The notes beneath the pieces were generated by a model. That model ran no database searches. It was not told the DNA's origin and saw only the letters and a list, made by a program, of their open reading frames with translations. The translations under genes and the position numbers were made by a program. A stretch of 64,000 bases of DNA from positions 16,065 to 80,064 of the forward strand of contig JBAZYH010000002.1 of the NCBI GenBank assembly GCA_041659365.1, read 5' to 3'. How positions within the stretch are numbered: the stretch's first letter is position 1; each line of letters begins with the position of its first letter. The stretch comes from Minisyncoccota bacterium (GTDB taxonomy: Bacteria > Patescibacteriota > Minisyncoccia > Phycocordibacterales > GWA1-40-21). This document shows, one piece after another, positions 1,791 to 61,495 of the stretch.

Positions 1791-1796
1791 TATAAT

Positions 1797-1870: not shown

Positions 1871-1996
1871 GCGTTTATTTTAGACAATATATCTTTATTT
1901 TACTTTAGTTTTTTAGTTCTAACCTAATTAGTTTTTGTTATAAAAATAACTAGTTTTTTGTAGTTACTGTAAATAATTTGTGCTATATTAACTTTA

Positions 1997-3142
1997 ATGA
2001 AAATAGCATTTATTCACAATGAAAAGAAAATTGGAACAGGCGCACATTATATAAACGATTTAATGAGTCAAAAGTTGACTAGTTCTAAGATTGATACAAA
2101 AAACTTTTATCCCAAAACTTCACTGATTGAAACACCTGTTCATCTAAGTGGAATAAAAAATATTTTATTTTTTTATTCTTTGTTAGAAAAAAGAAAGGAA
2201 ATATTAAAATATGATCTTATACAGGGAACTACTTATACATCTTTACCATTTCTCGCTTATTCTATCCCCGTAGTCGCTCATTTTGGTTCTACTACTAGAG
2301 GTTTTTTGGATTCTACACCCAGAGCTAGTCAGATGGAAAATGGTTGTCGTAAAATTTGGTATAAGCTTAAAAAAGACGGTGCTATATCTGAACTTAATAT
2401 AAAGACCAGAAAGCCGATGAGAGATATAGCTGATGTTGAAGAATATGTTGCTTCTAAGGCTAGTGCTGTAATTGCTACTTCTGAAAATGTTCGCAGGGAG
2501 TTGCTTTTGATGGGTACTAAAACTGAAAATGTTTATCTTATTCATAATGCAATTGAAGATTATTGGTTTGAAACGACAATAAACAAAGATTTACCAACAC
2601 CAAAGATTGTTTTTCTCGGTCGTTTAGGAAATGATTCTTTTACTTTAAAACTTAAAGGTTTAGATCGTTTAATCTATTTATGGCAAAAATTTCCAATGAT
2701 AGAAAAAGTTTGTTTGGCTATTACTACGAATAAAACTTTAATAGAATATTTAAAATCAAATATTTCAAAATTAACACTTGAAGTTAATATTAAAAAAGAT
2801 AATTTACCAGAAAAATTATTGTCGCTTCGTGGTAGTATACTTTTTATATCTTCTCGGTATGAGGGTTTTTCTCTTAGTTTGATTGAAGGTATGTCACAAG
2901 GTTTAATACCTATCGCATATTCGGTTGGGGTAGTGCCAGAAATCATACATAATGGTAAGAATGGTTTTATTGTCTCTTCTGTATCTGAAGCTGCAGAAAA
3001 GGTCAATGAAATTATGAATAATAAAAAACTTAGAGAAAGTATGTCAGACGAAGCAATAAAGACCTCCAAGCAGTTTTCAAGTGAAAAAATCACAAAAGAG
3101 TTGATTGCTTTGTATAAAAAGGTCATTACCGCTTCAAGTTAA
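1997..3142 (+). CDS. glycosyltransferase family 1 (GT4-like)
   Basis: C-terminal EGFSLSLIEGMSQGLIPIAYSVGVVPEIIHNGKNGFIV matches the GT-B EX7E motif region. Confidence 0.65.
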   Translation: MKIAFIHNEKKIGTGAHYINDLMSQKLTSSKIDTKNFYPKTSLIETPVHLSGIKNILFFYSLLEKRKEILKYDLIQGTTYTSLPFLAYSIPVVAHFGSTTRGFLDSTPRASQMENGCRKIWYKLKKDGAISELNIKTRKPMRDIADVEEYVASKASAVIATSENVRRELLLMGTKTENVYLIHNAIEDYWFETTINKDLPTPKIVFLGRLGNDSFTLKLKGLDRLIYLWQKFPMIEKVCLAITTNKTLIEYLKSNISKLTLEVNIKKDNLPEKLLSLRGSILFISSRYEGFSLSLIEGMSQGLIPIAYSVGVVPEIIHNGKNGFIVSSVSEAAEKVNEIMNNKKLRESMSDEAIKTSKQFSSEKITKELIALYKKVITASS

Positions 3143-3168
3143 TTGTAATTCTGATATAATTTTAATCA

Positions 3169-4086
3169 ATGAATCTTTTTATTATTATTTTAGGTATAAT
3201 TGGTTCCGTTTCCTTATTTTTGTATAGTGTTATTTCTTTTGGTAAAATCATTAAAAATACTGCTGGTCCCAAAATAAAAACCTTGTTGTCTTCTTTAACT
3301 TCTAACCCTTTTAAAGGTGTTATTTTTGGTACTGTATCTACTGCTATTCTTCAATCTAGTACCGCCACCTCTGTTTTGGTAGCTAGCTTAGCAGATGCTG
3401 GTTTGATTTCTTTTTATAATACCTTAGGAATAATATTTGGTGTAAATATAGGGACAACAATCACTTCTCAATTGATAGCTTTTAATGCAATGGCTATATC
3501 TCCTTTTATAATACTTCTTGGATTGATTATCTATTGGTGGGGAAATAGTTTTAAAAAATATGCTAGTTCGATTATATATTTTGGTTTATTGTTTTTTTCT
3601 ATTTATTTAATTTCAATTTTTGTTTCTTATATTGATCAAGAACTATTAGGATCATATCTTTCTATTACTTCTAATCCAATAATCGCTATTCTAGTTGGGG
3701 TAGTTGCTACCTTAATATTTCAATCTAGTAGTGTTGTGTCTGGTATTGTTTTAGTTCTCGCTGGTGTTGGTCATATCGATTTAGCTCAGTCTGTTGGTTT
3801 GATCTTAGGTGCCAATATAGGCACAACCTCTACAGTTATTATTGCTTCTCTCGCGATGGGTAAAGAAGCTAAAAAAGTTGCTCTATCACACTTTTTGTTC
3901 AATTTTCTAGGAGTGATTATTCTACTTCCTTTTATGGAGTATTTTTATAAAGTTGTTAAATGGTTAGATGGAGATATAGTTCATCAAGTAGCAAATATTC
4001 ATTTAATTTTTAATGTTGTTTGTGCTTTTATCTTTTTATTGGCAATAAAGCCATTTTCACTGTTGGTTAGTCGTTTAATTAAATAG
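3169..4086 (+). CDS. Na+/Pi-cotransporter family membrane protein (NptA-like)
   Basis: Polytopic membrane protein with duplicated GxNIGTT(I/S)T motifs (GVNIGTTITSQ and GANIGTTSTV). Confidence 0.6.
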   Translation: MNLFIIILGIIGSVSLFLYSVISFGKIIKNTAGPKIKTLLSSLTSNPFKGVIFGTVSTAILQSSTATSVLVASLADAGLISFYNTLGIIFGVNIGTTITSQLIAFNAMAISPFIILLGLIIYWWGNSFKKYASSIIYFGLLFFSIYLISIFVSYIDQELLGSYLSITSNPIIAILVGVVATLIFQSSSVVSGIVLVLAGVGHIDLAQSVGLILGANIGTTSTVIIASLAMGKEAKKVALSHFLFNFLGVIILLPFMEYFYKVVKWLDGDIVHQVANIHLIFNVVCAFIFLLAIKPFSLLVSRLIK

Positions 4087-4215
4087 TTAATTGTGTTTTA
4101 GGGGAGAATGCTGGTATATATATTGTTGCATCATTTTTTCTCTCGAAAATAGTTCTTACATCCTCGACCACGGCACCCAATTTTAAAAGCGGCTTATTGC
4201 CGTCTTTTTAAATTG

Positions 4216-4335
4216 GGTGCCTAAGCAAACAAACTGCTTTGTTTGCGTGAGAGAATCGAAAGATTTTTCCTTACCGAATATGATGAGGTGGAAAAATACC
4301 TGGCTATGTAATAGCCGATTCTCTCTAGGCACCCA
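4216..4335 (+). ncRNA. tRNA-like structured RNA, unit 1, mimicking the tRNA-His acceptor and T regions
   Basis: A 9-bp terminal stem GGGTGCCTA/TAGGCACCC closes the unit. The last 20 nt (4317-4336) are identical to the 3' end of tRNA-His at 1851-1870. Internal perfect stems: CAAACA/TGTTTG, GAGAGAATCG/CGATTCTCTC, GGCTA/TAGCC. Confidence 0.45.
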
Positions 4336-4371
4336 AGAAAGAAGAGTCTGCAGTAGCAGACTTTTTTCTTG

Positions 4372-4507
4372 GGTGGCTAAGTAAGTGCTAGTAAGCACTT
4401 ACGTTCGGGGGTTGAAGCCTCATTGAGCATATTTTATGAATGTTAATGAAATAAAATATCCAATAGGGATACTGTTCCTGTAAGGAAAAACTCCCCGATA
4501 GCCACCC
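4372..4507 (+). ncRNA. tRNA-like structured RNA, unit 2, tandem paralog of unit 1
   Basis: Same architecture as unit 1: 9-bp closing stem GGGTGGCTA/TAGCCACCC (a compensatory C:G to G:C swap relative to unit 1), AG, an 8-bp hairpin TAAGTGCT-AGTA-AGCACTTA, CGTT, and a long stem CGGGGG.../...CTCCCCG. Confidence 0.4.
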
Positions 4508-4578
4508 AATGTATTTTTTTAGATATTTAATCTTTAATTGTTGAGGACTTTTTAGTTCTACTTTGATATACTTTTAAA

Positions 4579-5410
4579 ATGGAAGAACAACCAAAACCAG
4601 AAGGAAAAATGGAAAAAACACCTATACCAGAGGTTCAGTTTGAGGTGTTGGGTATTAAAGATGAAATAGAGATGATATTTAGTTTTTGTATGCATAAAAA
4701 TCCAAGTTTAGATTTTAGTAAAGTTGTTTATAATGTACATCCAGAACTCAGAAAGATGGTTGATGGAATAACTGATGAAAAACAGTTTCATGAACAATGT
4801 GAAAAATACGTTTTAGATTATATTGATAAAAATAAAGAAGCACTAGAGAAATCTAAAAAACATTTTCAGAAAATTTGGAATCAGATTGGTGAAGACCTCT
4901 TAAAAAATCTTTTAGAAGATTTTGAGACTGATTTGCCCGAAGAAATAAAAGAAATTAAAGCAAATGTTTCTATTAACCCTATGTGTCCTAGATTTATAGA
5001 TAGATGGATGTTTAATTTATATTATAAATTTTCTGATAGTTCAATAGTAGGGGGTTTCTATTCATGAAATAATACATTTTGTATATTTTAAAAAGTGGTC
5101 AGAAGTTTTTCCCGACTCTGATCGTAAAAATTTTAATGGTATGAATTCTGAATGGATATTGAGCGAGATTTTGGTTCACACAATTATGAATAATAATAAG
5201 ATTATTCAAGGTATTGTGAAAAATGAAAAGTTTGAAGTCTATAAAAGATGGCAGTCTATTAGGGTTGATGGTAAAAAACTAGATGAATATTTTGATGGTT
5301 TTTATAAAGAACATGAAGAAGGAAAAATTTCTTTTGCTGATTTCTTGAGAAAATCTTGGGATGAATATCAAAAGAATAAAGATGTTATTGAAGGTAGTAT
5401 TAAGAAATAG
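4579..5410 (+). pseudogene. hypothetical protein interrupted by a +1 frameshift at a GGGGG run (5050-5054)
   Basis: ORF 4579..5067 (frame 1) continues without a stop in frame 2 from about 5052 (..GVSIHEIIHFVYFKKW..) into ORF 5141..5410. Confidence 0.4.
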
Positions 5411-5496
5411 TGTATTCAGAGGTAGGGTAAAATATCGGAATATAAATCGTTGTATCATTTCTCCCCTCAAAAACTTTTCTTACATTCTTATTTATA

Positions 5497-5545
5497 CAAC
5501 TAAAACAAAAAACAAACATCCGAGTGTTTGTTTTTTGTTTTAGTA
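5497..5545. terminator. rho-independent terminator, bidirectional
   Basis: aaaacaaaaaacaaaca-tccgag-tgtttgttttttgtttt: a long perfect stem with flanking T/A runs. Confidence 0.6.
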
Positions 5546-5568
5546 TTATTGTAATTAAATACACTGCT

Positions 5569-5719
5569 TTTACAATATTTTCTCTCCCTTAATAAGTCTT
5601 ATTAAAATCATTACTACCGCTATAATAAGGAGAATATGAATAAAACCGCCTAACGTATAAGATGTAACTAAACCTAAAACCCAAAGTATTATTAAAATGA
5701 TAGCAATTGTAGTTAACAT
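5569..5719 (-). CDS. small hydrophobic membrane peptide (about 50 aa)
   Basis: Minus-strand ORF MLTTIAIILIILWVLGLVTSYTLGGFIHILLIIAVVMILIRLIKGEKIL. It is not in the ORF track because it is under 60 aa, and it ends at the bidirectional terminator. Confidence 0.25.
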
Positions 5720-5851
5720 ATTTTTTTTGATTAAAATAACTAATAAATTTATAACACTGTAATACTAACAAATTAAGATTAATTTAAGATTAAAATGTAT
5801 TTTAACCTTCAATTAATCTTAATTTTATATTTTTATGTTAAAATAATAAGT

Positions 5852-6658
5852 ATGCAAGAAAATTTTTCGTCATTAATTATAGAGGTAAAAGATTTAGTTA
5901 AAAATTTTAAAAAAATTGAAGCTGTAAAAGGTATTACTTTCTCAGTGTTAAAAGGTGAGAGTTTTGCTTTTTTGGGCCCGAATGGCGCTGGTAAAACGAC
6001 TACTATCAGAATACTTACAACACTTCTTGATCCAACATCGGGGTCTGTTGTTTTAAATGGTTTTAACGTTCATGAAAAACCAAACGAAGCACGTCACTCT
6101 TTTGGTATTGTTTTTCAAGATCCAAGTTTGGATACGGAGCTTACTGCTTATGAAAATATGTATATACACGCCGTTTTGTACGGTCTTTCCAAGTCTGTCT
6201 ATTTAAAACGTATAGAAGATTTAATGAAGCTTGTTGATCTTTGGGAAAGAAGAGATGACTTGGTCAAGAATTTCTCTGGTGGAATGAAAAGAAGACTTGA
6301 AATAGCACGCGGCTTGCTTCATCATCCAAAAGTGCTTTTTTTAGACGAGCCAACTCTCGGTCTAGACCCACAGACAAGAAATCATATGTGGAATTATATT
6401 AAAGGGCTAAGAGAGAAAGAAGGTTTAACTGTTTTTTTTACTACACATTATATGGAAGAAGCAGACAAAAATGCCGATAGGATAGCTATAATAGATCATG
6501 GAGTTATCGTCGCTCAAGGAAAATCAGATGAGCTTAAATTGCAAACAAATACAAAGACACTTGAAGATGCTTTTCTCGTACTTACTGGTGATACGATTCG
6601 TGATTCTTCGGGTGGTGATGGATCTGAAATGATGAAAATGTGGCATGGAAAAAGATAA
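5852..6658 (+). CDS. ABC transporter ATP-binding protein (ABC-2 type)
   Basis: Walker A GPNGAGKTT, signature FSGGMKRRL, Walker B LFLDEPT. Start at the internal Met MQENF. Confidence 0.85.
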   Translation: MQENFSSLIIEVKDLVKNFKKIEAVKGITFSVLKGESFAFLGPNGAGKTTTIRILTTLLDPTSGSVVLNGFNVHEKPNEARHSFGIVFQDPSLDTELTAYENMYIHAVLYGLSKSVYLKRIEDLMKLVDLWERRDDLVKNFSGGMKRRLEIARGLLHHPKVLFLDEPTLGLDPQTRNHMWNYIKGLREKEGLTVFFTTHYMEEADKNADRIAIIDHGVIVAQGKSDELKLQTNTKTLEDAFLVLTGDTIRDSSGGDGSEMMKMWHGKR

Positions 6659-39621: not shown

Positions 39622-39905
39622 TAAACTCCTTTTTAAGCGGTTAGTTATGATTGTGATTAATGGAAGATTTATCCATAAGCACTGTTCCAGTTAGTATACT
39701 AGCATATCTGTTATAAAAAGTCAAGAGTATATTGGGCGAGAATCGTGAGTACACTTTCGGTCAGGAATAAATTTTTGTTATTATAAAAAAGAGATGGGCG
39801 GAATCGGTCTCAAATCACTAAGTATTTTAGAATTATTAAATTCTAAAATACAAAGTGTTTGCGACCCCGACTCGCAAGATTTTTTGCTAAAAATCTTTGG
39901 CTCCG

Positions 39906-39954
39906 TCTTTCGATTCTCACATGAAAGTGCTACCCAGCACTTTCTCATCTCCAC
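39906..39954 (+). other. tRNA-3'-end-mimic element A (T-loop-like TTCGATTCTCAC + hairpin GAAAGTGCT-ACCC-AGCACTTTC + TCATCTCCACC)
   Basis: The hairpin is identical to that of element B (55904-55925). The terminal TCTCCACC is the inverted complement of the 3' end of the tRNA fragment at 39999..40026. A palindromic terminator lies between them. Confidence 0.4.
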
Positions 39955-39998
39955 CTAAAAAACAAAAAGCACCTCTTACGAGGTGCTAATGTTTTTAC

Positions 39999-40026
39999 AG
40001 GTGGAGATGGCGCGAATCGAACGCGC
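39999..40026 (-). other. orphan tRNA 3' fragment (T-arm GCGCG-TTCGATT-CGCGC + acceptor CATCTCC-A-CC), likely an att-site remnant
   Basis: A perfect T-arm and acceptor 3' strand are present on the minus strand. No matching 5' half (GGAGATG) was found in the adjacent sequence read. Confidence 0.45.
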
Positions 40027-40189
40027 GTGCAAATGATTGTTCCCAATGCTTCTACAAAGTATAGTTTGTTTAGTTTCGCCCGAAAGCGAATTTAAAATTA
40101 TAGACTATAAATAAACAAAACATCTATAATTCGATTCTCTAATTTTCTTTGTGTATCGAGAAGGTACACAATATATCCTGAAAATATAT

Positions 40190-40262
40190 CACCCTAAAAC
40201 ATTTTGTAAACAAAATGTTCGGGCGATCAATTTTTGTATTAACAAAAATTGATTTAGCCCCA
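40190..40262. repeat. 75-nt direct repeat (CCCTAAAACATTTT..GTTCGGGCGATCAATTTTTGTATTAAxAAAAATTGATTTAGCC), copy 1
   Basis: Shares its 5' module with family 2 and contains the palindrome atcaattttt..aaaaattgat. Second copy at 40468..40540. Confidence 0.5.
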
Positions 40263-40467
40263 ACAGCTTATCAGAAATAGGCTGCTAGTGTGTCGCTTAG
40301 GCTAAAGCGTAAGCGAAAGTAAGGTCCTTGGTACCAAAAAATGGTGACACAATGCCAGCTACTTTTGAAGAAATGCTATTTGCATTTGAAGTTCCTTGAT
40401 AGATTTAAGAGTTCACAAGGTTGCTCTACTTTGCGCAAGAGAGAACGGGACCAAATGTCTAGGCCGA

Positions 40468-40540
40468 TCATCCCCCTAAAACATTTTTTACTAAAAATGT
40501 TCGGGCGATCAATTTTTGTATTAATAAAAATTGATTTAGC
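40468..40540. repeat. 75-nt direct repeat, copy 2
   Basis: ccctaaaacattttttactaaaaatgttcgggcgatcaatttttgtattaataaaaattgatttagcc. Confidence 0.5.
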
Positions 40541-53661: not shown

Positions 53662-55626
53662 ATGGATATGTTAAAAAATAAACAAAATTTAAATAAAAAA
53701 CCTACAAACGGTAATAAGAAAATACCTGGTTTTGGTGGTGGGCCGATGTCTGTGTTTAGTAAGATATTGAATGCAATTTTAATTATTTTAATAATTTCTA
53801 CTTTGTGGTCAATGATTTTTACAGGTGGTGAGAAAAAAGAACAGATTTCTCTTTCGCAGCTTTCTCAAGATATAACTCTCGGTATTGTAGATAAAGTAGA
53901 GGTAATGGGGGACGATCTTTCCATTACTTATTTTTCTACAAGCACAGAAGCGAGCACAACTCCGCTTATAAAGGAATCAAAGAAAGAGGAGGGGGTTGCT
54001 CTTACTCAAACTTTATCAAATTATCAGGTTCCTCAAGATAAGCTTGCGAAAGTAAATATAGAAATTTTGAGTGATACAGGTTTTAAATATTGGTTTATGA
54101 GCCTTGCACCATTTCTTATACCACTTATTTTTATAGGTATATTTATTTGGATACTCACAAAACAAATGAAAGGTGCTGGGGTTCAAGCTCTTTCTTTCGG
54201 TCAATCAAAAGCTAGAATTATTTTACCAAGTGATAAGAAACAAAGAGTAACTTTTGCAGATGTTGCAGGAGCTAAAGAAGCAAAAGAAGAACTTTCTGAA
54301 GTTGTAGATTTTTTGAAAAATCCTAAAAAATTCTTAGACATAGGAGCGAAGATTCCAAAAGGGCTTCTTCTTATGGGTGCTCCTGGTACAGGAAAAACAT
54401 TACTCGCAAGAGCTGTTGCCGGAGAAGCAGGTGTTGCATTCTTTTCAATCTCTGGTTCAGAGTTTGTTGAGATGTTTGTGGGAGTAGGAGCTTCTCGTGT
54501 CCGTGACCTTTTCCAAATGGCAAAGAGAGCTGCTCCGGCTATTATATTTATAGATGAAATAGATGCAGTGGGCAGAGTAAGAGGTTCAGGAATGGGTGGG
54601 GGAAACGATGAGAGAGAACAAACCTTAAACCAGATACTTGTAGAGATGGATGGTTTCGAACAGAATGAAAAAGTTATAGTTATGGCAGCTACAAACAGAC
54701 CTGATGTTCTAGACTCTGCATTACTTAGACCAGGAAGATTTGATAGAAGAGTTGTTATAGATTTACCAGATAGAAATGATAGAGAGGCAATTTTAAAAGT
54801 TCATTCAAAATCTAAACCTTTTGCTGAGGATGTAAATTTGAGAACTATTGCAGAGAGAACCCCAGGTTTCTCTGGTGCTGACCTTTATTCACTTATGAAT
54901 GAGGCAGCTATACTTGCAGCTCGTGAGACAAGACAAAAAGTTTCTCAGTTTGATCTTATTCGTTCAATAGAAAAAGTTATGATGGGTCCTGAGAGAAAAA
55001 GTCATTTACTTTCTGTAAAAGAAAAAGAGATTACAGCTTATCACGAAGCAGGCCATGCGCTTGTGTCTTCTATACTTCCGTATGCAGATCCAGTACATAA
55101 GATTTCTATTATTTCTCGTGGAAGAGCTGCGGGTTATACTTTACATTTGCCCTTTGAGGATAGAAAAATGCAATCGAAGAAAGAGTTCTTAGATGATATA
55201 GCTATGGCTCTTGGAGGATATGTTGTTGAGAAAATGATTTTTAAAGATCTTACTACTGGTCCTTCAAATGATCTTCAGGTTTCAACTGCACTTGCAAGAG
55301 ATATGGTTACAAAATATGGAATGTCAGAAAAGATGGGACCTGTTGCTCTTGAAGGAGAGGGTGGAAGAGCTTTGTTTGGAAAAGGAGTTGGGGACAAAGA
55401 ATATTCAGATAAAATAAATGCACAGATTGATGAAGAAGTTTCAGAAATTATGAATAGTAATATGAGACGCGCAGAGAAAATAATTACTGAACATAAAGGC
55501 GCACTTGATGCGATAGCAAAGAGACTTATAGAAACAGAAACTATTGAAAGGGAAGAGTTTGAAAAGATACTTGTAGCGAATGGAATAATGCCAAAGAAGA
55601 AGGAGGATATAGAGCACCAGGGATAA
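53662..55626 (+). CDS. ftsH: ATP-dependent zinc metalloprotease FtsH
   Basis: [26 protein letters not shown], two N-terminal TM helices. Confidence 0.9.
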
Positions 55627-55812
55627 TAAAATAAAAGAAATTAATTAAAAAACGAGGTGAGACCTTAAATCTTCAAAAAGGTGTCTCCTCGTTTTTTAGT
55701 AGTTATCAAATTTTTTCTTCCTTGGGTCCCACCCCAAGCTCTAAAAAATAAAATTTCAAACTTTGGGGCCCATCCCAAAGTTTGAAATACGACGACAGGA
55801 CCATGAGTACAT

Positions 55813-55938
55813 TTCTCGAAGCTTACAGCTTCAGTACCCCGATTGGAGATTTTGTTTCGTTAATACTCACAAAATCTGCTCAATCGGGCTTCGAGTCCTA
55901 CACGAAAGTGCTACCCAGCACTTTCTCACGCGCACCAT
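55813..55938 (+). other. tRNA-3'-end-mimic element B, convergent with tRNA-Ile
   Basis: ..cttacagcttcagta-[cccgattg..caatcggg stem]-cttcgagtcctacacg-[gaaagtgct-accc-agcactttc]-tcacgcgcacca. The last 9 nt equal the tRNA-Ile 3' end, and the element shares the palindromic terminator 55929-55987 with that tRNA. Confidence 0.45.
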
Positions 55939-55987
55939 AATAAAAAATCCCGAGGACTGTCCTCGGGATTTTTTATTATGGTGCGCG
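55929..55987. terminator. bidirectional palindromic terminator shared by tRNA-Ile and element B
   Basis: cgcgcaccataataaaaaatcccgagg-actgt-cctcgggattttttattatggtgcgcg: a perfect 27-bp inverted repeat. Confidence 0.6.
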
Positions 55988-56054
55988 TGGTAGGACTCGA
56001 ACCTACGGCCAGTCGTGTATAAGACGACCGCTCTACCAACTGAGCTACACGCGC
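55979..56054 (-). tRNA. tRNA-Ile with a UAU anticodon
   Basis: Reverse complement GCGCGTG-TA-GCTC-AGTTGGTA-GAGC-G-GTCGT-CTTATAC-ACGAC-TGGCC-GTAGG-TTCGAGT-CCTAC-CACGCGC-A-CCA. Perfect cloverleaf, anticodon TAT, CCA encoded. Confidence 0.8.
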
Positions 56055-56110
56055 ATACTTTCTAGATATTATCGTAAAAAATGTTTTTTAGCAATATTTT
56101 GTATGTAATT

Positions 56111-56138
56111 GTCATTCCTGCTTTCGCAGGAATGGCAC
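56111..56138. repeat. family 1 variant palindrome (gtcattcctgctttcgcaggaatggcac)
   Basis: Same variant form as at 34014-34046. Confidence 0.45.
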
Positions 56139-56203
56139 AGTATATCCTTGCAAAAATTTCAGGGGGGGGTAAAATTAAGGTATTAATAATTTAATTATAA
56201 AAT

Positions 56204-56539
56204 ATGTTAGAAAAAATTCTTGGTTTGGGTGGTGAAAAGGAGGTAACGGATTTTACAAAAATCGGAGACAATCCAGCTGTTGTGGAGAAAGTAGAGCAAG
56301 GAGAACCAACAATTGAGTCAGAAATAGACAAAACAGAGGATGATAAATTTTTTTATAAACAAGGTAGAGAGGTGGTTGAGAACTTAATAAAATTTCGTAT
56401 TAGAAAAATAATGAAAAAAGGCAAATTTGCTGATGCTGAAGCATACGCTAGATCGATTGGAGTAGAATTTTCTACAGATCTTTCTGGTAATATAGAAAAA
56501 ATTGAAATTCCGGAATCAGTTTTTGAGACAATGTTATAA
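56204..56539 (+). CDS. hypothetical acidic protein
   Basis: 111-aa ORF with a gggggg SD-like run upstream. No motif recognised. Confidence 0.4.
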   Translation: MLEKILGLGGEKEVTDFTKIGDNPAVVEKVEQGEPTIESEIDKTEDDKFFYKQGREVVENLIKFRIRKIMKKGKFADAEAYARSIGVEFSTDLSGNIEKIEIPESVFETML

Positions 56540-56632
56540 AAAATTAACTTTGATTTTGGAAGGTCAGACCTAGGAGTAAAAGTAGTTTGTTAATCAACCG
56601 CTATTTAGTGGTTGATTTTGTATTATTTTTTA

Positions 56633-58792
56633 TCACTCAAAATGTATCTCACACTTCTTTCTGTTACATAGTTTGTCTACTATAAGAGGGAATTTAGAAA
56701 GTGTTTCATCTTGTTCTAATAAATATCCAGCTTCAGCACGAGCTGCTTCTACCATTTTTAAATTTTTAATTGCTTCCATTCCTATATCAGAGATACCCCA
56801 TTGTTTACCTTCAGAGAGTCCACCTGCGCCCCTTAGTTTAAGGTCGTATTCTGCAAGTTCAAAACCATTTTTAGCCTGTGTAAGTGCGCGAAGTCTATCT
56901 ATAGTTTTTTCTGATTTTGTTTCTGCAAATACATAACAATACGCTTGGTGATTACTTCTTACTACACGTCCACGAAGTTGGTGAAGTTGAGCAAGACCAA
57001 ATCTTTCTGCTCCCTCAATAATAATCAAAGTTGCATTAGGAACATTTACCCCAACTTCAACCACGGAGGTGGCGACTAGGATGCGGATTTTTCCAGAGGA
57101 AAAATCCGCCATGACAGCTTCTTTTTCTTTAGGAGTCATTTTACTATGAAGTATGTCTATTTCATATTCTGAAAAGACTTTTTCTTTTATTCTTTTGGCC
57201 TCTTCTTTTACAGATTTTGCTTGAACAGAAGCTTCTTTATTTGGATCTGGCTCATCTATTCTAGGACAAATAATATAAAGTTGTCTTCCTTCTTTCATTT
57301 GTTCACGAATTTTTTCATAAATACTTTCTCTTTTTCCAGGTAAAACTATTTCGGTGATAATTGGTTTTCTTCCAGTTGGCATTTGATCAAGAAGTGTTAG
57401 GTCAAGATCTCCATATATTGTAAGTGCAAGTGTTCTTGGTATTGGCGTTGCCGTCATCGAAAGTAAGTGCGGAGATATTTTTTCTTTTCTAACAAGCTTC
57501 TGTCTTTGTGCCATTCCGAACCTATGCTGTTCGTCGATTACGACGAATGCCAAATGTTTAAATTTAACAGTTTTTTGTATAAGAGAATGTGTACCGATAA
57601 GTATTGGAATCTCTCCATTTTCTACCCATTTTAAAAGTTGCGTTCGAGAAATATCTGTCCATCCAGAAGGATTAACTTTTGAGGGAAATTTCTTACATCC
57701 AGAGCCTGTTATCAAACCAACATTTATTCCTAAGTAGGTAAAATATTTTATAAAAGATTCAAAATGTTGTTTTGCAAGTATTTCTGTGGGTGCCATATAA
57801 GCCACTTGTAATGTGCCGAAATCTTGCCCGCCTGGACGTGTAGTAACTACACCAAATGCGGCTGCGGCGGCGACCGCTGTCTTACCTGACCCTACATCTC
57901 CCTCTAGTAAGCGAGACATCGGGTGGCCTCTAGTGAAGTCCTGGAAGATCTCTCTGATGGCCTTTGTTTGGCCCTCTGTGGCCGTAAATGGAAACCTTTT
58001 TACGAAGCCGTCTATCTTATCTTGCTCTGTTTTAATAGTGAAGGCGGGTTCTTTTTGCCATTCAATACGTGTTTTTATTCTTTCAATTTGAATGAAGAAA
58101 ACTTCTTCAAAAGCAAAACGTTTTCTAGCCATTAAGGCGTGGTCTTGTTTTTGTGGTTCATGTATCCAAATCAAAGCAGATTTTAGAGGTGGTAAGTTAT
58201 ATGTAGTTAAAATATATTCAGGTATAGTATTTAATATCGAGTCTAAAATTCCAGAGGCGAATATTTTTTTAATAGAATGATAAAACCAGTTTGAAGTGAT
58301 CCCTTTACTTTCAGGATAGATTGGATAGAGAGAATGGACTTCTCCTCCTTCTCCAAACAAAGAATCACCAACACCTATTGGAAGTTTAGCCACTGTTTCG
58401 ATTTTCGGGTTACTCATATATAGTTCTCCTTTTCTATCTGAAACTTTTCCATCAACACGTACAAACATTCCTTCAGAAATCATTTTGGCTATATATGGTT
58501 GGTGGAACCATACAGCTTTTATTTTTCCAGATTCATCTTCTATCCAAGCTTCGGACATTGGTATTTTACTTTTGAAACCCTTACTTGTTTTTAGGCCAGA
58601 AATTTTTCCAAAGATTACTGCTTTATCTCCTCCAATTAAGTTACCAATATTTTTCTTTTGTGAGGTATCTCCATAACGGACAGGGAAGTGAAAAAGTAAA
58701 TCTTCTACGGTTTTAAGACCAAGTTTTTTTAGAGCTATTTTTTGTGGTTCAATTAGACGGAATTCTTTTTCAATAAGTGAATCAAGATTCAT
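56633..58792 (-). CDS. recG: ATP-dependent DNA helicase RecG
   Basis: N-terminal wedge domain, GDVGSGKT, DEQHRFG, and helicase motifs through QLHQLRGRVVR. Confidence 0.9.
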   Translation of the reverse strand: MNLDSLIEKEFRLIEPQKIALKKLGLKTVEDLLFHFPVRYGDTSQKKNIGNLIGGDKAVIFGKISGLKTSKGFKSKIPMSEAWIEDESGKIKAVWFHQPYIAKMISEGMFVRVDGKVSDRKGELYMSNPKIETVAKLPIGVGDSLFGEGGEVHSLYPIYPESKGITSNWFYHSIKKIFASGILDSILNTIPEYILTTYNLPPLKSALIWIHEPQKQDHALMARKRFAFEEVFFIQIERIKTRIEWQKEPAFTIKTEQDKIDGFVKRFPFTATEGQTKAIREIFQDFTRGHPMSRLLEGDVGSGKTAVAAAAAFGVVTTRPGGQDFGTLQVAYMAPTEILAKQHFESFIKYFTYLGINVGLITGSGCKKFPSKVNPSGWTDISRTQLLKWVENGEIPILIGTHSLIQKTVKFKHLAFVVIDEQHRFGMAQRQKLVRKEKISPHLLSMTATPIPRTLALTIYGDLDLTLLDQMPTGRKPIITEIVLPGKRESIYEKIREQMKEGRQLYIICPRIDEPDPNKEASVQAKSVKEEAKRIKEKVFSEYEIDILHSKMTPKEKEAVMADFSSGKIRILVATSVVEVGVNVPNATLIIIEGAERFGLAQLHQLRGRVVRSNHQAYCYVFAETKSEKTIDRLRALTQAKNGFELAEYDLKLRGAGGLSEGKQWGISDIGMEAIKNLKMVEAARAEAGYLLEQDETLSKFPLIVDKLCNRKKCEIHFE

Positions 58793-58869
58793 AATGACAT
58801 TCTAGCAGAAAAATATGGATAATAGAAAAGGCGGGTCGTGAAGCGAACCGCCTTTGTAGAGGAAGGCTG

Positions 58870-59139
58870 TCACCAGATTCCTTCTCTCTTATAGTGTTCA
58901 TTAAGAACCCGTTCATGACCATCGGCAAGAAGAGCAATCCTCTCGTCTAATTGTTCTTTCAAGTCCCCAATGAGTGAATCTTCTTGAACCCTGAGTCTAA
59001 CCCCATCAATTTTCAAGATAATAAAACTGAAACCAGGGAAAAGCTTACTTGTTAAAGTGATCGACTTTTTAAGGGTTTCAATCATTTTTGAAAAGATAGT
59101 CATATCTTGAAAACGACTTTCAGCGGTGAGTCTATCCAT
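58870..59139 (-). CDS. hypothetical small protein
   Basis: 89-aa ORF followed by the terminator aaaggcggttcgcttcacgacccgcctttt (58830-58865). Confidence 0.35.
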   Translation of the reverse strand: MDRLTAESRFQDMTIFSKMIETLKKSITLTSKLFPGFSFIILKIDGVRLRVQEDSLIGDLKEQLDERIALLADGHERVLNEHYKREGIW

Positions 59140-59270
59140 ACAGTCTCCTTTTTGTAGTTGTTGACGTCTATTTTAATTTTATATATTAAAGAGATTTTGT
59201 CAATGAAGTGTAAAAAAAATAAAAAGTATTATAATAATATAAGTATTAGTAATTTAATTTTAAAATTAAG

Positions 59271-59753
59271 ATGATTATATTAACAACAACAGAAATTATT
59301 ATCCGTCTTGCGGTAGCTGTTGGCTTAGGAGCATTGCTCGGACTTGAGAGAACTTTGGCAGGGAAGACTGCTGGTCTTCGTACTTATGCTATGGTTTCTT
59401 TAGGTTCCGGTCTTTTCGTCATTATTTCTCAAATGGTTGCATTAAACTCGGGTGATATATCGTCTTTTGATCCACTTAGAATGGCGGCTCAAGTTATTGC
59501 CGGTATAGGTTTTATTGGTGCCGGTCTCGTAATTTTTCAAGATCATAAAATCACAGGACTTACTACAGCAGCAGGACTTTGGGTAGCTGCAGGTGTGGGT
59601 ATGGCTTCAGGTTTTGGTTTTTATGGAGTTGCTATAATTGCTACTATTTTTGTAATGCTTGTTTTCACTGTTATGTGGTTTATAGAGAATATGTTAAAGA
59701 GATTTTCTTATAAGAGTGAGAAGGATGAGGATGGGCATGTTAAGAGATATTAA
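59271..59753 (+). CDS. MgtC/SapB family membrane protein
   Basis: RLAVAVGLGALLGLERTLAGKTAGLRTYAMVSLGSGLF is the MgtC signature. Confidence 0.75.
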   Translation: MIILTTTEIIIRLAVAVGLGALLGLERTLAGKTAGLRTYAMVSLGSGLFVIISQMVALNSGDISSFDPLRMAAQVIAGIGFIGAGLVIFQDHKITGLTTAAGLWVAAGVGMASGFGFYGVAIIATIFVMLVFTVMWFIENMLKRFSYKSEKDEDGHVKRY

Positions 59754-59779
59754 GTTTAAGTAAATTATTTGACGGATAA

Positions 59780-59830
59780 AAGAAAACGCTGTTCCGAGAT
59801 TTTAACTCGGGACAGCGTTGCTTTTAAATG
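59780..59830. terminator. bidirectional rho-independent terminator
   Basis: aacgctgttccgag-attttaac-tcgggacagcgtt. Confidence 0.6.
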
Positions 59831-60162
59831 GCCATGGATTGTATCGGTGTAATAACGAGAGTGTCCCGACAGATCTGTAAAAACATTAACTTTGTCTTAT
59901 TGACACCCGGTGCGCTTTCAACGGTGCCACGAATATCGGGGTGTTGTAATTTGAGGTGCTCTTCCCAGTGTTTTTCCAGAATAATGAGCACTTCATCTTC
60001 TCTATCCCTATTGGTGGCATGAAGCATCACGTTGGCAACATCGAAGGAAAGCAATGGTCCGAAGTTGTTCAATACGTTAACAGCACGGTTAAGGTATCGT
60101 TCGGGCATTTCCTTTAAGATTTTACGGAATCGTTCCTCACCAATAACTTTTGGTTGATCCAT
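59824..60162 (-). CDS. hypothetical protein on a GC-rich islet (true start at 60162, 112 aa)
   Basis: MDQPKVIGEERFRKILKEM.. preceded by aaggaggt 8 nt upstream. The longer ORF-track start is read-through. Confidence 0.5.
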   Translation of the reverse strand: MDQPKVIGEERFRKILKEMPERYLNRAVNVLNNFGPLLSFDVANVMLHATNRDREDEVLIILEKHWEEHLKLQHPDIRGTVESAPGVNKTKLMFLQICRDTLVITPIQSMAI

Positions 60163-60417
60163 TTTTGATGACCTCCTTTTTTGTCTAATCTGATAAAATG
60201 TTAACACGGTTAGTTTTATAAGTAAAATGAAGATGAGGGAGGTGATTTGATAAAAAACAATGTACGTATTTAAAAATAGTCTACCCAGACTATTTTTGAA
60301 TACCGAACGAGGGGGAAATTCAGTTAAGGTTTTTTCTTCGTTGAGACTCAGAAAAAAATGATCTCTTTTATTAACATAAAAACAGGTTCCCAAACTGTTT
60401 TTATGTTAATAAAAGAG

Positions 60418-60436
60418 GAGACGGCGAGGTTCGGCT
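60418..60436 (-). repeat. partial direct copy of the tRNA-Ser 3' end (ggagacggcgaggttcgg)
   Basis: Matches the plus-strand image of the tRNA-Ser T-arm/acceptor region (60686-60705). A second partial copy lies at 60516-60535. Confidence 0.4.
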
Positions 60437-60515
60437 ATTACATAGCCAAGATTTAACCATCTAGCTATATTTAAAAACAGGTTCCCAAACTGTTTTAATA
60501 TAAATAAATAAAATG

Positions 60516-60650
60516 ACGGCGAGAGTTTCGAAACTTACAGTTTCAGTACCCCCCATTGGCTCACTTATTCGTGATTACACTCTAAGTTCGGTTCAATGGG
60601 GCTTCGAATCTCGCACGCAAGCAAATACTTTTGCTTGCTCGTCTCCGCAT
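60516..60650 (+). other. tRNA-3'-end-mimic element C, convergent with tRNA-Ser
   Basis: gacggcgagagtttcgaaac-ttacagtttcagta-[ccccattg..caatgggg]-cttcgaatctcgcacg-[caagcaaa-tact-tttgcttg]-ctcgtctccgcat. Homologous to element B, with compensatory changes in both stems. Confidence 0.45.
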
Positions 60651-60685
60651 AAAAAAATCACACTGTTTCAGTGGATTTTTAAATG

Positions 60686-60772
60686 CGGAGACGGCGAGAT
60701 TCGAACTCGCGAGGGCTTTTAAACCCTGCCTCTTTAGCAAAGAGGTACATTAGACCACTCTGACACGTCTCC
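60686..60772 (-). tRNA. tRNA-Ser (anticodon GCU)
   Basis: Reverse complement GGAGACG..CCTCT-TTGCTAA-AGAGG..long variable arm..GCGAG-TTCGAAT-CTCGC-CGTCTCC-G. CCA is not encoded. Confidence 0.85.
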
Positions 60773-60976
60773 TTAAAACAAATTTTATACTAAAAAAATC
60801 AATTTAGCCAACTAAAATAGGTTAACATATTTTATTGTATAATTCTAGTTTTTTAAGATAACACGTAATGGTTCAATAGCTTGGATACAAAATATTAGTA
60901 ATTTTTAAGTTGTTTGTTATTTTTAAAAACTATATAATATATTCAAGATTAATCTGATATATAATATTTTAAAGAA

Positions 60977-61495
60977 ATGAAAAAAAAGATTGTTTGGTTA
61001 TTTTTTATTATTGCATTTATTTTAATAGGAGTTTTTTATTATAAGGAAAATAAAGAGGATAAGATAACAATAGCAAAGAAAGAAAATCAGGTTGAGAAAA
61101 TTAGTAACTTAGATGATTCTAAATCTATTGAGATTGCTAAATCTTATATTTTAAAGAAACCTCAATTGTATTTAAACAGAGAAGAATTTGTTAATTGGGA
61201 AAGTAGTAAATTAGGAATAGATTTTGTAAAAGTAAGTCCTGAGTGGGTAGTATCCCAAAAGCTAACATCAGAATATAATGCACCTAATACTTATCCTTCA
61301 CCTTATGATTATTTGAATGATAAAATTATAGTAAGTTGGTTTTTTATTCCTGGGTGTGAGGAAAATATAAACAGTACCGATCAACCAAACTGGTTTAATA
61401 AAGATGGTGTTCGTTGTTTAGGTGGTTATGATTTAAGAGTGATAATTAACTCTGATGGAACTGTTAGTTTGGTTGAACTAAATGCTATTGATTAA
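60977..61495 (+). CDS. hypothetical membrane-anchored or secreted protein
   Basis: N-terminal TM/signal anchor MKKKIVWLFFIIAFILIGVFYY. Confidence 0.45.
   Translation: MKKKIVWLFFIIAFILIGVFYYKENKEDKITIAKKENQVEKISNLDDSKSIEIAKSYILKKPQLYLNREEFVNWESSKLGIDFVKVSPEWVVSQKLTSEYNAPNTYPSPYDYLNDKIIVSWFFIPGCEENINSTDQPNWFNKDGVRCLGGYDLRVIINSDGTVSLVELNAID

Follow-up and report, generated by a model that had tools for sequence, protein, structure and literature searches.

The window, by which we mean the whole 64-kb stretch that was analysed, holds a tmRNA gene and the genes for tRNA-His, tRNA-Ile(UAU) and tRNA-Ser(GCU). Beside them lie five structured elements, A to E. Elements D and E belong to tRNA-His, and all of the tRNA/tmRNA genes of the window (4/4) are therefore occupied (Table 1). 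The original prediction described A, B and C as a family with one common architecture, and their features were confirmed in place; D, E and the left arms were absent from that description.

Table 1. Coordinates of the elements in the window, their parts and their partner genes.
Feature	Position	Strand	Remarks
tRNA-His	1798-1869	plus	partner of D and E
Element E (fifth, reduced)	4215-4334	minus	belongs to tRNA-His
Element D (fourth)	4370-4509	minus	degenerate family-1 core, nhmmer E = 6e-8
A, left arm and second-type core	39791-39908	plus	arm GAGATGGGCGGAATCGG, repeat of tmRNA 3' end
A, TTCGA box, segment 1, P1, segment 2	39909-39956	plus	P1 at 39923-39944
tmRNA gene, complete	39999-40475	minus	partner of A; Rfam RF00023, 84 bits, full length
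Intrinsic terminator just past the left end of B	55753-55788	minus (tRNA strand)	15-bp stem, then T run
Element B	55790-55937		core family 1; partner tRNA-Ile(UAU)
B, left arm	55790-55816	plus	degenerate direct repeat of tRNA-Ile 3' end
B, hairpin P3	55817-55833	minus	tRNA-sense UGAAGCU-GUA-AGCUUCG, 7 pairs
B, two-part long hairpin P2	55838-55888	minus	outer stem CCCGATTG/CAATCGGG
B, TTCGA box and segment 1 (GTCCTAC)	55890-55901	plus	TTCGAGTCCTAC
B, hairpin P1	55904-55925	plus	9 bp, 4-nt loop; identical to P1 of A
B, segment 2	55927-55937		CACGCGCACCA, identical to tRNA-Ile 3' end
B, palindrome: segment 2, spacer/terminator, tRNA-Ile 3' end	55927-55989	none
tRNA-Ile(UAU), intact	55979-56054	minus	partner of B; tRNA gene calling and Rfam
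Older remnant upstream of C	60417-60447	plus	direct repeat of tRNA-Ser 3' end, GGAGACGGCGAGGTTCGG
Element C	60515-60649		same plan as B; partner tRNA-Ser(GCU)
C, left arm	60515-60532	plus	direct repeat of tRNA-Ser 3' end, GACGGCGAGAGTTTCGAA
C, hairpin P3	60529-60545	minus	family structure alignment and folding
C, hairpin P2	60551-60601	minus	outer stem CCCCATTG/CAATGGGG, compensatory relative to B
C, TTCGA box and segment 1 (ATCTCGC)	60603-60614	plus	equals tRNA-Ser T-loop and 3' T-stem
C, hairpin P1	60617-60638	plus	GCAAGCAAA/TTTGCTTGC
C, segment 2, bidirectional terminator, tRNA-Ser 3' end	60640-60693		segment 2 CGTCTCCGCA; one long hairpin
tRNA-Ser(GCU), intact	60685-60772	minus	partner of C; tRNA gene calling and Rfam

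Read on the tRNA strand, a unit starts with the intact tRNA, a spacer that is usually a terminator hairpin, and a complement of tRNA positions ~59-76 that is split by hairpin P1. There follow TCGAAGCC, the long hairpin P2, GUAC and hairpin P3, which ends in the T-loop TTCG, and the unit closes with a second direct copy of tRNA positions 54-76, behind which stands the old downstream terminator. The element thus lies between two direct copies of the segment from T-loop to 3' end, so that the tRNA stays whole. This direct repeat begins at the TTCGA of the T-loop, extends to the tRNA 3' end and constitutes an insertion signature. The intact tRNA 3' end, the internal complement and the terminator form a hairpin of 20-30 bp.

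In element B, TTCGAGTCCTAC is identical to the T-loop (positions 54-60) and 3' T-stem of tRNA-Ile and is complementary to 55990-56001 at 12/12 positions. Together with the identity of CACGCGCACCA to its tRNA segment, this bears out the predicted pairing of B with tRNA-Ile(UAU); the internal complement matches at 15/15 positions. P1 splits this inverted copy of the tRNA 3' end between T-stem and acceptor strand. The palindrome is a perfect inverted repeat with 31-nt arms (55927-55957 and 55959-55989) that includes the terminator and folds with 30 pairs at -53.9 kcal/mol. The inner stem of P2 has a GA/GAA internal loop close to its tip, and P3 takes in the T-loop TTCG at the insertion junction. 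The left arm of B keeps only GGAC..CTCGAA, is interrupted by the mini-hairpin CCATGAGTACAT, and matches at 6/15 nt with an offset of 14; its CCATGAGTAC/CCGCGAGTAC insert is also present in L002, L006, L024, L035, L065, L076 and L099. We read the terminator beyond this arm as the original downstream terminator of the tRNA-Ile gene.

The same plan was confirmed for C, whose pairing with tRNA-Ser(GCU) had likewise been predicted: the box and segment 1 are complementary at 12/12 positions, the internal complement matches tRNA-Ser at 15/15, and the inverted repeat has 20-nt arms that are 90% complementary. The left arm of C has a 2-nt insert ahead of TTCGAA. In the older remnant upstream of C, the repeat directly adjoins the hairpin GGCTA-TTACA-TAGCC, the left end of a third core type. 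This hairpin recurs in element E, directly next to the tRNA-His repeat, and is there followed by a mini core and by TTCGATTCTCTC-ACG-P1-CT-TAGGCACCCA; this last part matches tRNA-His, from which E is separated by 2.3 kb of genes. In D, the left arm and the split inverted copy agree with each other on a tRNA-His-like end (TAGCCACCCA), and these arms do not match the tRNA-His of the window.

Element A had been paired with an orphan tRNA 3' fragment, which is really the 3' end of the complete tmRNA gene. Its segment 2 (CATCTCCACCT) is identical to the tmRNA 3' end at 11/11 positions, its P1 equals that of B over 22/22 nt, and its inverted repeat has 30-nt arms that are 80% complementary. The core reads ..TCAAATCACTAAGTA..hairpin..GCGACCCCGACTCGC.., was not matched in a family-1 profile search, and is common to L074, L058, L029 and L087. 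A truncated B or C was ruled out as an explanation of A, since this is a distinct core type that recurs in other genomes.

The conserved core of about 75 nt was found at at least 119 loci, in at least 124-126 copies that include B and C. In the window, the 18-nt core pattern has two exact matches, as against 0.03 expected, and single-stranded DNA folds of the units reach -77.8 and -58.3 kcal/mol (z = -18 and -15); chance is not the explanation. A third pattern match (2511-2528) lies inside a coding region and was discarded as a chance match. All taxon-labelled records among the matches listed belong to Patescibacteria (Parcubacteria/Paceibacteria). A scan of IMG/VR viral contigs with the core pattern gave 0 matches, and blastn against a phage database returned matches to tRNAs only and none to the elements. 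Each of the 98 scorable core copies has a convergent tRNA or tmRNA gene, on the opposite strand, at most 200 nt away, and in none (0/98) is there a same-strand gene of this kind within 200 nt. The original claim that the family is tied to the neighbouring tRNA is supported. The partners comprise 33 anticodon species, plus tmRNA. We tentatively assign A, B and C to a superfamily of insertion elements that are non-coding, non-autonomous and ~130-250 bp each, with at least three core types, and put this at slightly less than an even chance; at the same level of confidence, we propose that they occupy the 3' part (T-loop to 3' end) of tRNA/tmRNA genes and are restricted to Patescibacteria. A literature search found no description of such Patescibacteria elements, and the family is apparently undescribed so far.

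Across the family, the left arm equals the tRNA 3' end at 15-16/16 nt in most copies, and in 29 copies the direct repeat stops 0-2 nt beyond the tRNA 3' end. Some copies form tandem arrays, whose units measure 157 and 140 nt. The internal complement matches its own tRNA at a mean of 12.8/15 positions, versus 9.6 for foreign tRNAs (95th percentile 11), and it is perfect in 27 copies. Its split falls at one of two fixed places, and in 50/50 matched copies its pairing with the tRNA end continues through the spacer. In about a third of the copies with a perfect left repeat, the internal complement is no better than chance in an ungapped comparison, and left-repeat match and complement match are anticorrelated (Spearman -0.37), which is not predicted by a simple model in which the fold is required. 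Fold-back copying of the tRNA end was rejected as the sole origin of the internal complement, because the conserved P1 interrupts the complement at fixed positions. We also rejected an internally deleted or inverted tRNA copy, because the left arm consists of the 3' end in reverse complement, with CCA and T-loop positions 59-60 present as complements. The GC-rich hairpin and T run of an intrinsic terminator are found in the spacer only, and leave the core, P1 and the extension of the stem into the tRNA unaccounted for.

The three helices were examined family-wide. Of the helix cells in P1-P3, 93.7% are paired, compared with 79.5% in shuffles; cells changed on both sides number 123 versus 28.8, a level reached by 0/500 shuffles, and in slid controls pairing drops to 26-48%. 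The middle pair of P3 is Watson-Crick in 112/117 copies, with all four pair types occurring. Two compensatory changes had been noted between B and C, in the 8-bp stem and in the hairpin; both are present and are upheld across the family. Since the helices are kept by compensatory change, the elements represent a functional nucleic-acid structure rather than scar tissue, as was originally suggested. Rfam 15 gave no family for the elements, either at the gathering threshold or in a search of 55500-61000 with E relaxed to 10, where the only output was chance-level microRNA/sRNA matches on the terminator palindromes. ARAGORN and the Rfam tRNA model (E up to 10) call the partner genes only, and the elements do not qualify as tRNA-like genes. 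Hammerhead, twister and K-turn readings of the core, attempted by eye, were dropped, since in each case strands or bulges that define the motif are absent and Rfam shows no match. No hidden guides to the tRNA body left of the T-loop were detected in the variable part of P2 (observed 5.04, control 5.07).

The helices also carry a strand bias. In 107/117 copies the tRNA-sense strand gives the more stable P2, with 87 G.U pairs versus 36. For A, B and C the tRNA sense lies on the minus strand, which by GC skew in the window is the leading-strand template, so that exposure at the fork does not obviously explain the bias. A G.U bias would suit RNA equally well, and it is unlikely, if worth serious thought, that the element is a structured RNA gene, transcribed in the direction of the tRNA (by read-through or in the tRNA precursor), trimmed by tRNA-processing enzymes and serving as a guide or an intermediate. 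Trimming would be possible because a 12-bp helix resembling an acceptor/T-stem arises between the 5' complement and the 3' copy of the tRNA end. Such an RNA might be a scaffold like the IS605 omega-RNA, with the displaced 59-76 as a 3' end that directs a nuclease or recombinase to TTCGA plus 59-76 of tRNA genes, or it might bind the 3' 18 nt of the cognate tRNA in the manner of a retroviral primer-binding site. The invariant junction nucleotides (UCGAAGCC, GGGUACUGAA and CUGUAAG) together with three covarying helices recall ribozymes and guide scaffolds, the complement spans exactly positions 59-76 (18 nt), P1 branches off at the point from which a real tRNA extends its D, anticodon and variable arms, and there is a strong terminator behind the left repeat on the tRNA strand. 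However, a T-run terminator hairpin usually stands between tRNA and element, in a spacer without promoter-like site, and P1 is nearly all Watson-Crick, its wobble fraction of ~1%, like that of ~4% in P2, being low for RNA; the terminator and the near-pure P1 argue for DNA over RNA. The 3' copy, which would be the helix or guide part, has decayed in many copies that are otherwise intact, B among them; no TnpB or reverse transcriptase turned up as a partner protein among the ORFs scanned, and the elements have neither an Rfam match nor a segment matching the tRNA body. Small RNAs antisense to tRNA 3' trailers, one of the roles proposed earlier, do not fit: the element-sense strand has the sense of the tRNA end and is not its complement, and the wobble bias on the opposite strand and the intervening terminator also oppose this role.

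Comparison with relatives revealed that copies come and go between close relatives, and that one core lineage is found at different tRNA species in related genomes. The tRNA-Ser gene is empty in the relative L200 (PilM 90% identical), and in the relative L203 it is occupied by a B-like core with a P2 that, by eye, is nearly identical to that of B in the window. Two genomes that are 97% identical differ in the spacer only. The core is absent from 80 FtsH-syntenic metagenome loci, where tRNA-Ile usually follows ftsH in the other orientation, and by comparison with element-free relatives, tRNA-Ile and tRNA-Ser of the window are inverted with respect to their neighbours. This inversion could speak for a device that serves the host and is not mobile: a bidirectional terminator or insulator, a spare 3' half or nuclease decoy, or an invertible switch, the last considered because palindromic TTCGAA sites flank a palindromic module with arms that differ by P1 only. 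The spacer is indeed a bidirectional terminator, the tRNA 3' end, CCA included, is reproduced exactly at the end of the element-sense strand, and the copies of a single genome, though old and diverged, are intact and match their tRNAs. We nevertheless find a host device most unlikely, as the closest relative lacks the element at tRNA-Ser, L203 has the element without the tRNA inversion, insertion events are indicated by the direct repeats, by the arrays and by a core lineage that has moved from one tRNA species to another, and the wobble bias is opposite to the strand of the proposed decoy RNA.

Among the three roles suggested originally, recombination sites of a tRNA-targeting integrative element come nearest to the data, given the direct repeats, the presence and absence in relatives and the tandem arrays; the part that did not hold is the integrase, which is neither encoded nor linked. 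The search recommended for one nearby found none inside the elements, no recombinase in the window, and none linked in 119 loci. No ORFs were found inside the elements (130-250 bp), clustering of all ORFs of the 119 loci gave no recurrent recombinase among the neighbours (the top clusters being PilM, a 134-aa cluster that is YraN-like by eye, and housekeeping genes), and Pfam detected no recombinase, HUH nuclease or reverse transcriptase in 59 ORFs from the window and related loci. The cargo between copies consists of defence or ordinary genes. Could the elements be leftovers of classical double-strand integrative elements, similar to CIMEs, that lost their genes, kept their att sites and arm regions, and are mobilised, if at all, by the integrases of incoming islands? 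The direct repeat from T-loop to tRNA 3' end, which leaves the tRNA restored, is what integration of the T-loop type classically produces; there is tandem accretion at one tRNA, islands with defence or other cargo lie between or beside copies, and L204 has a large serine recombinase at the 3' end of tRNA-Ser. But the L204 island is without the core, units of 140-250 bp are not long enough to close into a double-stranded circle, and classical attP sites have no counterpart of the split internal complement. Moreover, the core persists in many candidate phyla and at 33 tRNA species, and shows compensatory change and strand-specific wobble that are foreign to protein-binding arms. Together with the absence of linked integrases, this makes such leftovers improbable in our estimate.

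The interpretation that we favour, at close to an even chance, is a non-autonomous, T-loop-targeting insertion element that works as a folded single strand, its mechanism being inferred from the architecture. The unit would move by site-specific recombination within the common 54-76 segment, for which the conserved palindromic T-loop TTCGAA may be the common handle. The active form would be a folded single strand, most likely tRNA-sense DNA, in which the tRNA 3' segment pairs with the internal complement and so imitates the duplex acceptor/T-arm end of the gene, while P1 would protrude and P2 and P3 would cap the rod. The enzyme would be encoded elsewhere in the genome. The complement would be kept matched to the tRNA by the need to fold, possibly with the aid of hairpin-templated correction. 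It is tempting to go further, and to speculate that this is a protein-less mobile element with its insertion specificity written in nucleic acid: the folded strand would rebuild the acceptor/T-arm end of a chosen tRNA gene, using the carried 3' end and the split internal complement, the universal T-loop TTCGA would be the crossover handle, and the element could be re-programmed to any tRNA. This would constitute a new structure- or guide-directed class of site-specific insertion, in which tRNA enzymes might also process an RNA form. We consider this broader proposal possible but somewhat doubtful.

The genomes of Patescibacteria are tiny, and few mobile elements have been recognised in them. 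Here a structured insert is present at every tRNA/tmRNA gene of a 64-kb stretch, and the same core occurs in more than 100 genomes. If the elements move as we propose, DNA can be inserted harmlessly into essential tRNA genes without a carried gene. Target choice would then be encoded by a fold that is rewritable for any tRNA, which could provide a compact programmable insertion site and would bear on the origin of integration hot spots at tRNA genes. On a practical level, the elements mark sites where defence islands accumulate, and they produce tRNA-end pseudo-fragments and long palindromes that can confuse the annotation and assembly of Patescibacteria genomes.

How do these elements relate to known systems? 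Williams reportedly defined, in 2002, 'sublocation' classes for integration into tRNA and tmRNA genes, one of them the T-loop class. Islands and phages of this class (with P4-type tyrosine integrases) and CIMEs also target tRNA/tmRNA 3' ends, bring a replacement 3' end, leave a direct repeat from the T-loop to the end of the tRNA, and accrete in tandem at one tRNA. In contrast to them, our elements have no integrase, are 10-100x smaller, possess a covarying folded core and a split complement of the att segment, and form one family at 33+ tRNA species. MITEs, whose terminal inverted repeats belong to the element, can be set apart, as the inverted arms here are locus-specific copies of the local tRNA end and the flanking repeat is at least 20-23 bp, versus a duplication of 2-10 bp. 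Group I introns of Patescibacteria tRNA genes, the subject of the one paper found on tRNA insertions in this phylum, are Rfam-detectable ribozymes that interrupt the tRNA in the anticodon loop, at position 35/36 (10.1101/2025.07.03.662931). They share with our elements the phylum and a preference for tRNA genes as the home of small selfish or structured elements, whereas our elements follow an uninterrupted tRNA and match no intron model. Retroviral and LTR primer-binding sites are also complements of the 3'-terminal 18 nt (59-76) of a tRNA; the complement in our elements is, by contrast, split by a hairpin and located beside the tRNA gene itself, with no reverse transcriptase or LTRs.

The IS110 bridge RNA and the IS605 omega/reRNA combine, like our elements, a conserved scaffold with short variable segments that match the target, two of them flanking a hairpin. 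Unlike in those RNAs, the two segments here correspond to one and the same strand of the target, on which they adjoin each other, and the terminator lies upstream of the presumed RNA. Paired guides as in the bridge RNA, for left target and donor, were not found, nor was a match to the tRNA body or an adjacent gene for a DEDD recombinase or TnpB. Parallels in folding are offered by the integron attC site, the CTX-phage attP(+), and the ends of IS200/IS605 elements and of the gene-less PATEs. PATEs are defined by strand-specific subterminal hairpins and by insertion 3' of a fixed 4-5 nt site without duplication; hairpins, a strand bias and a junction at TTCGA are present here, the flanking repeat could be carried rather than duplicated, and no TnpA or TnpB was found among the ORFs scanned. 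All these systems use imperfect hairpins of one strand with extrahelical features and strand-specific G.T pairs, form cassette-like arrays and insert by a short conserved sequence (here TTCGA), and their fold imitates a duplex target. The differences are that no link of our elements to IntI, Xer or TnpA emerged, that their hairpin arms are derived from the target and tRNA-specific, that they carry a replacement gene end, and that the extrahelical feature is a hairpin of ~22 nt instead of single bases. The predicted fold of the element is compatible with a folded site of the attC/CTX type.

All the sequence features listed for A, B and C, three structured loci that converge with a gene on the opposite strand, were found in place. 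In B, the 31-nt arms of a perfect inverted repeat reach from CACGCGCACCA across the terminator into tRNA-Ile, and the architecture of C proved to be that of B, with tRNA-Ser(GCU), at 60685-60772 on the minus strand, as the partner. The original prediction had paired A with an orphan tRNA 3' fragment; the gene there is in fact a complete tmRNA gene, with whose 3' end A is paired. The P1 hairpin of A is identical to that of B at 22/22 nt. Every element also possesses a left arm, a copy of the tRNA 3' end in the tRNA's own orientation, which lies directly left of the conserved folded core and reaches up to the T-loop TTCGAA. Outward of the left arm lies a terminator on the tRNA strand. Each element is thus flanked by two direct copies of the segment from the T-loop to the 3' end, and this is the signature of an insertion which replaces the tRNA 3' end and displaces the old end outward.

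Features of the elements and their partner genes in the window
Feature	Position	Strand	Basis or remark
E, reduced element beside D	4215-4334	-	split inverted copy is an exact match to tRNA-His
D, extra core copy	4370-4509	-	core profile search, E = 6e-8
tRNA-His	1798-1869	+	
A left arm GAGATGGGCGGAATCGG	39791-39807		
tmRNA gene, partner of A	39999-40475	-	RF00023, 84 bits
B left arm			remainder GGAC..CTCGAA only, broken by a mini-hairpin
B T-loop and 3' T-stem box TTCGAGTCCTAC	55890-55901	+	equals tRNA-Ile(UAU) sequence
B hairpin P1, 9 bp, 4-nt loop	55904-55925		
B segment CACGCGCACCA	55927-55937		equals acceptor 3' strand, discriminator and CCA of tRNA-Ile
tRNA-Ile(UAU), partner of B	55979-56054	-	tRNA gene call
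Older E-type remnant, upstream of C	60417-60447		
C left arm GACGGCGAGAGTTTCGAA	60515-60532		

Counting D and E, which are linked to tRNA-His, 3/3 tRNA genes and the tmRNA gene of the 64-kb window are occupied. The 2.3 kb between E and tRNA-His hold genes for a glycosyltransferase and a Na/Pi cotransporter. Both arms of D agree with a tRNA-His-like end, TAGCCACCCA, and not with the tRNA-His of the window, a misfit that is not accounted for by a simple insertion model. The core type of E has the hairpin GGCTA-TTACA-TAGCC, that of A recurs at four loci from other genomes (L074, L058, L029, L087), and the right module is common to these other core types. B and C are old and mutually diverged, with unrelated inner parts of hairpin P2, and despite this divergence each is intact and perfectly matched to its own tRNA.

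The surroundings are those of an ordinary Patescibacteria chromosome (FtsH, RecG, ComF, ComEC, PilM, SmpB, EF-Tu, EF-G, ribosomal proteins), and PilM is 100% identical to a protein from a 'Candidatus Paceibacterota' MAG. Between roughly 36 and 56 kb the GC content climbs from about 0.31-0.34 to 0.41-0.45, while GC skew is positive throughout. Two tandem small ORFs (163 and 167 aa; 803-1790, + strand), which match HNH endonucleases weakly, stop 8 nt short of tRNA-His; homing endonucleases of the HNH type are reported from tRNA introns of Patescibacteria (10.1101/2025.07.03.662931). The oldest tRNA-Ser end remnant is flanked by a palindrome at 60363-60417 whose 26-nt arms are 96% complementary, and one arm resembles the plain downstream flank of an empty tRNA-Ser in a relative (L200, 762-790). 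The sequences suggest that tRNA flanks at these loci become 'palindromised'.

A pattern taken from the B/C core (TTACAGNTTCAGTACCC, 30-60 nt, GGCTTCGA) was searched by exact match in a collection of species-representative genomes, where it matched at least 119 stretches, several genomes holding more than one. Every taxon-labelled record among the 80 matches listed was from Patescibacteria/CPR, with the labels Taylor-, Zambryski-, Nomura-, Kaiser-, Vogel- and Ryanbacteria, Paceibacterota, Parcubacteria, Minisyncoccia and TPA 'Saccharibacteria'. A phage feature was ruled out, as the pattern had 0 matches in 2.9 million viral contigs. An opposite-strand tRNA or tmRNA gene lies at most 200 nt downstream of 98/126 copies; 10 copies run off the fetched DNA, and most of the remaining 18 either stand at the outer side of an array or have degenerate copies or islands between them and the tRNA. 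A same-strand tRNA or tmRNA gene was found near 0/126 copies. The partners comprise 33 anticodon species and tmRNA. In most copies the left arm reproduces the 3' end of the local tRNA at 15-16/16 nt, its boundary typically falling 0-2 nt past the tRNA end, while some repeats are longer. Tandem arrays exist at some loci; the unit is 157 nt long at L069 and 140 nt long at L108. Each element is an insertion inside positions 54-76 of a tRNA or tmRNA gene, and the gene stays whole.

Downstream of the core TTCGA, tRNA positions 59-76 are carried inverted. This internal complement is broken at one of two fixed places: after the 3' T-stem by a 22-26-nt insert consisting of AC, P1 and T (type alpha), or after positions 59-60 by an insert of about 29-31 nt (type beta). 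It matches the neighbouring tRNA at a mean of 12.8/15 positions, where tRNAs for other amino acids score 9.6 (95th percentile 11), and the match is 15/15 in 27 copies, B and C among them. Complement match and left-repeat match are anticorrelated (Spearman -0.37, p = 2e-4). The acceptor part of the complement pairs with the tRNA's own 3' end in 50/50 copies with a matched complement, and the spacer prolongs this helix, with 74% of its nucleotides paired. The product of complement, spacer and tRNA end is a 20-30-bp hairpin, usually with terminator features on both strands. Spacers lacking terminator features often carry the short motif (A/C)CTTCG(C/T)T(C) at the hairpin tip, for example at L007, L019, L025, L055, L069 and L071.

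The fold was assessed on an alignment of 42 alpha-type copies, read on the strand of the partner tRNA (tRNA-sense strand). The consensus has three helices: P1, the outer P2 stem, and P3, a helix of 7 bp (UGAANCU-GUA-AGN'UUCG) that takes in the T-loop TTCG. Paired cells amounted to 93.7% versus 79.5% in column shuffles, and cells changed on both sides to 123 versus 28.8 expected, values reached by 0/500 shuffles; sliding the 3' partner lowered the pairing to 26-48%. The middle P3 pair is Watson-Crick in 112/117 copies (A-T 68, C-G 32, G-C 9, T-A 3). The elements are thus kept as folded structures. Junction nucleotides TCGAAGCC, GGGTACTGAA and CTGTAAG are invariant, an invariance partly imposed by the search pattern. 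The P2 tip (55852-55875, tRNA-sense strand) has in most copies a conserved internal loop, ..U-GA-G[short stem]C-GAA-A.., where tandem sheared G.A pairs would form as they do in hammerhead domain 2 or loop E; neither a full ribozyme nor a K-turn consensus fitted it. The direct repeats and the accretion of copies would fit CIME-like remnants of classical integrase att sites, a reading rendered improbable by the covarying core and the split complement, which it does not fit.

P2 is more stable on the tRNA-sense strand in 107/117 copies (-21.8 vs -17.8 kcal/mol), with 87 G.U pairs on that strand versus 36 on the other; P1 pairs are almost all Watson-Crick. GC skew marks the tRNA-sense strand of A, B and C as the template of the leading strand, so that replication-fork exposure does not explain the strand bias. 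The wobble bias is consistent with a structured tRNA-sense RNA acting as a guide, an intermediate or a tRNA-binding RNA, and so are the invariant junctions and the complement of exactly 18 nt. We consider this rather unlikely, given the terminator upstream, the small share of wobble pairs and a 3' copy that has decayed in many otherwise intact elements.

To follow gain and loss, the tRNA-Ser neighbourhood was sampled through PilM homologues, irrespective of element presence. In the closest relative (L200, PilM 90% identical) tRNA-Ser is intact and without an element; L203 (PilM 79%) has two tandem elements there; and L204 (PilM 78%) lacks a core at tRNA-Ser(GCU), the locus of C in the window. 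Copies are thus gained and lost between close relatives. Judged by eye, one P2 in L203 is almost the same as the P2 of B, the element at tRNA-Ile, so a core lineage can occupy different tRNA species with arms fitting the local tRNA. Two genomes 96-97% identical (L053, 5900-6300; L055, 5470-5860) share an identical element at tRNA-Glu, with unrelated spacers (37 vs 23 nt) and rearranged left flanks, and L053 has an additional truncated core. The elements turn over between relatives. Without an element, tRNA-Ile(UAU) in most relatives (L127-L153) follows ftsH, and tRNA-Ser in L200 follows MgtC, both on the same strand as that neighbour; the occupied tRNA-Ile and tRNA-Ser of the window are both inverted relative to these neighbours. 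The link between occupancy and inversion is uncertain, because L203 is occupied without inversion. These inversions and the long-term upkeep in the window's genome would suit a host device (terminator, decoy or invertible switch), which the empty site in the closest relative and the insertion signatures make the least probable reading.

The elements have no protein-coding content and no tRNA or Rfam family match, and no linked gene recurs among their neighbours. Cargo between copies consists of a CBASS-like SMODS/SLATT pair, a LexA-methylase fusion, Shedu, or ordinary genes, and these tRNA ends look like hot spots for defence islands. L025 (oriented minus strand, 880-6600) has a 5.7-kb island between two copies, with a CBASS-like SMODS/AGS-C protein, a SLATT effector, a LexA-S24-C5-methylase fusion and an HTH protein; its edges are long inverted repeats and a 23-bp direct repeat of the spacer hairpin, and the left arm of the outer copy is the 3' end of another tRNA. 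At L029 (561-1346 and neighbours), Shedu (SduA) and ankyrin-repeat genes lie between an element copy and tRNA-Ser(CGA). At L204 the gene for a 528-aa large serine recombinase (918-2513) converges on the tRNA-Ser(GCU) 3' end, the gene call overlapping it.

As the most likely mechanism we tentatively propose a mobile folded single strand undergoing strand exchange in the shared segment. As ssDNA, the unit from T54 of the tRNA to the end of P3 is predicted to form a rod from which P1 branches off sideways and which ends in P2/P3 (B, -77.8 kcal/mol, z = -18; C, -58.3 kcal/mol, z = -15). The carried tRNA 3' segment would pair with its own split complement and mimic a duplex gene end, with P1 extrahelical and P2/P3 capping the rod, and a putative recombinase or nuclease, encoded elsewhere, would exchange strands inside the shared segment, for which the universal palindromic TTCGAA is the obvious candidate handle. 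We prefer DNA over RNA as the active form, because the favoured strand normally has a terminator between the tRNA and the element, the spacer contains no promoter-like site, wobble pairs are few, and a 140-250-bp dsDNA circle is sterically unlikely, an objection that does not apply to a hairpin rod. In this model the complement must match the tRNA because it has to pair with the carried, functional tRNA end, and re-targeting to a new tRNA requires a change in both arms.

The original prediction understated a real finding: a phylum-wide, multi-copy family of structured non-coding elements at tRNA gene ends. No description of them was found in the literature searched, the nearest paper concerning group I introns that interrupt tRNAs of Patescibacteria at position 35/36 (10.1101/2025.07.03.662931). 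That the mechanism is of a new kind has a considerable, though less than even, probability. Since no segment matches the tRNA body, the element is unlike the IS110 bridge RNA in its build; the known kind to which we assign the family is site-specific insertion at tRNA genes.
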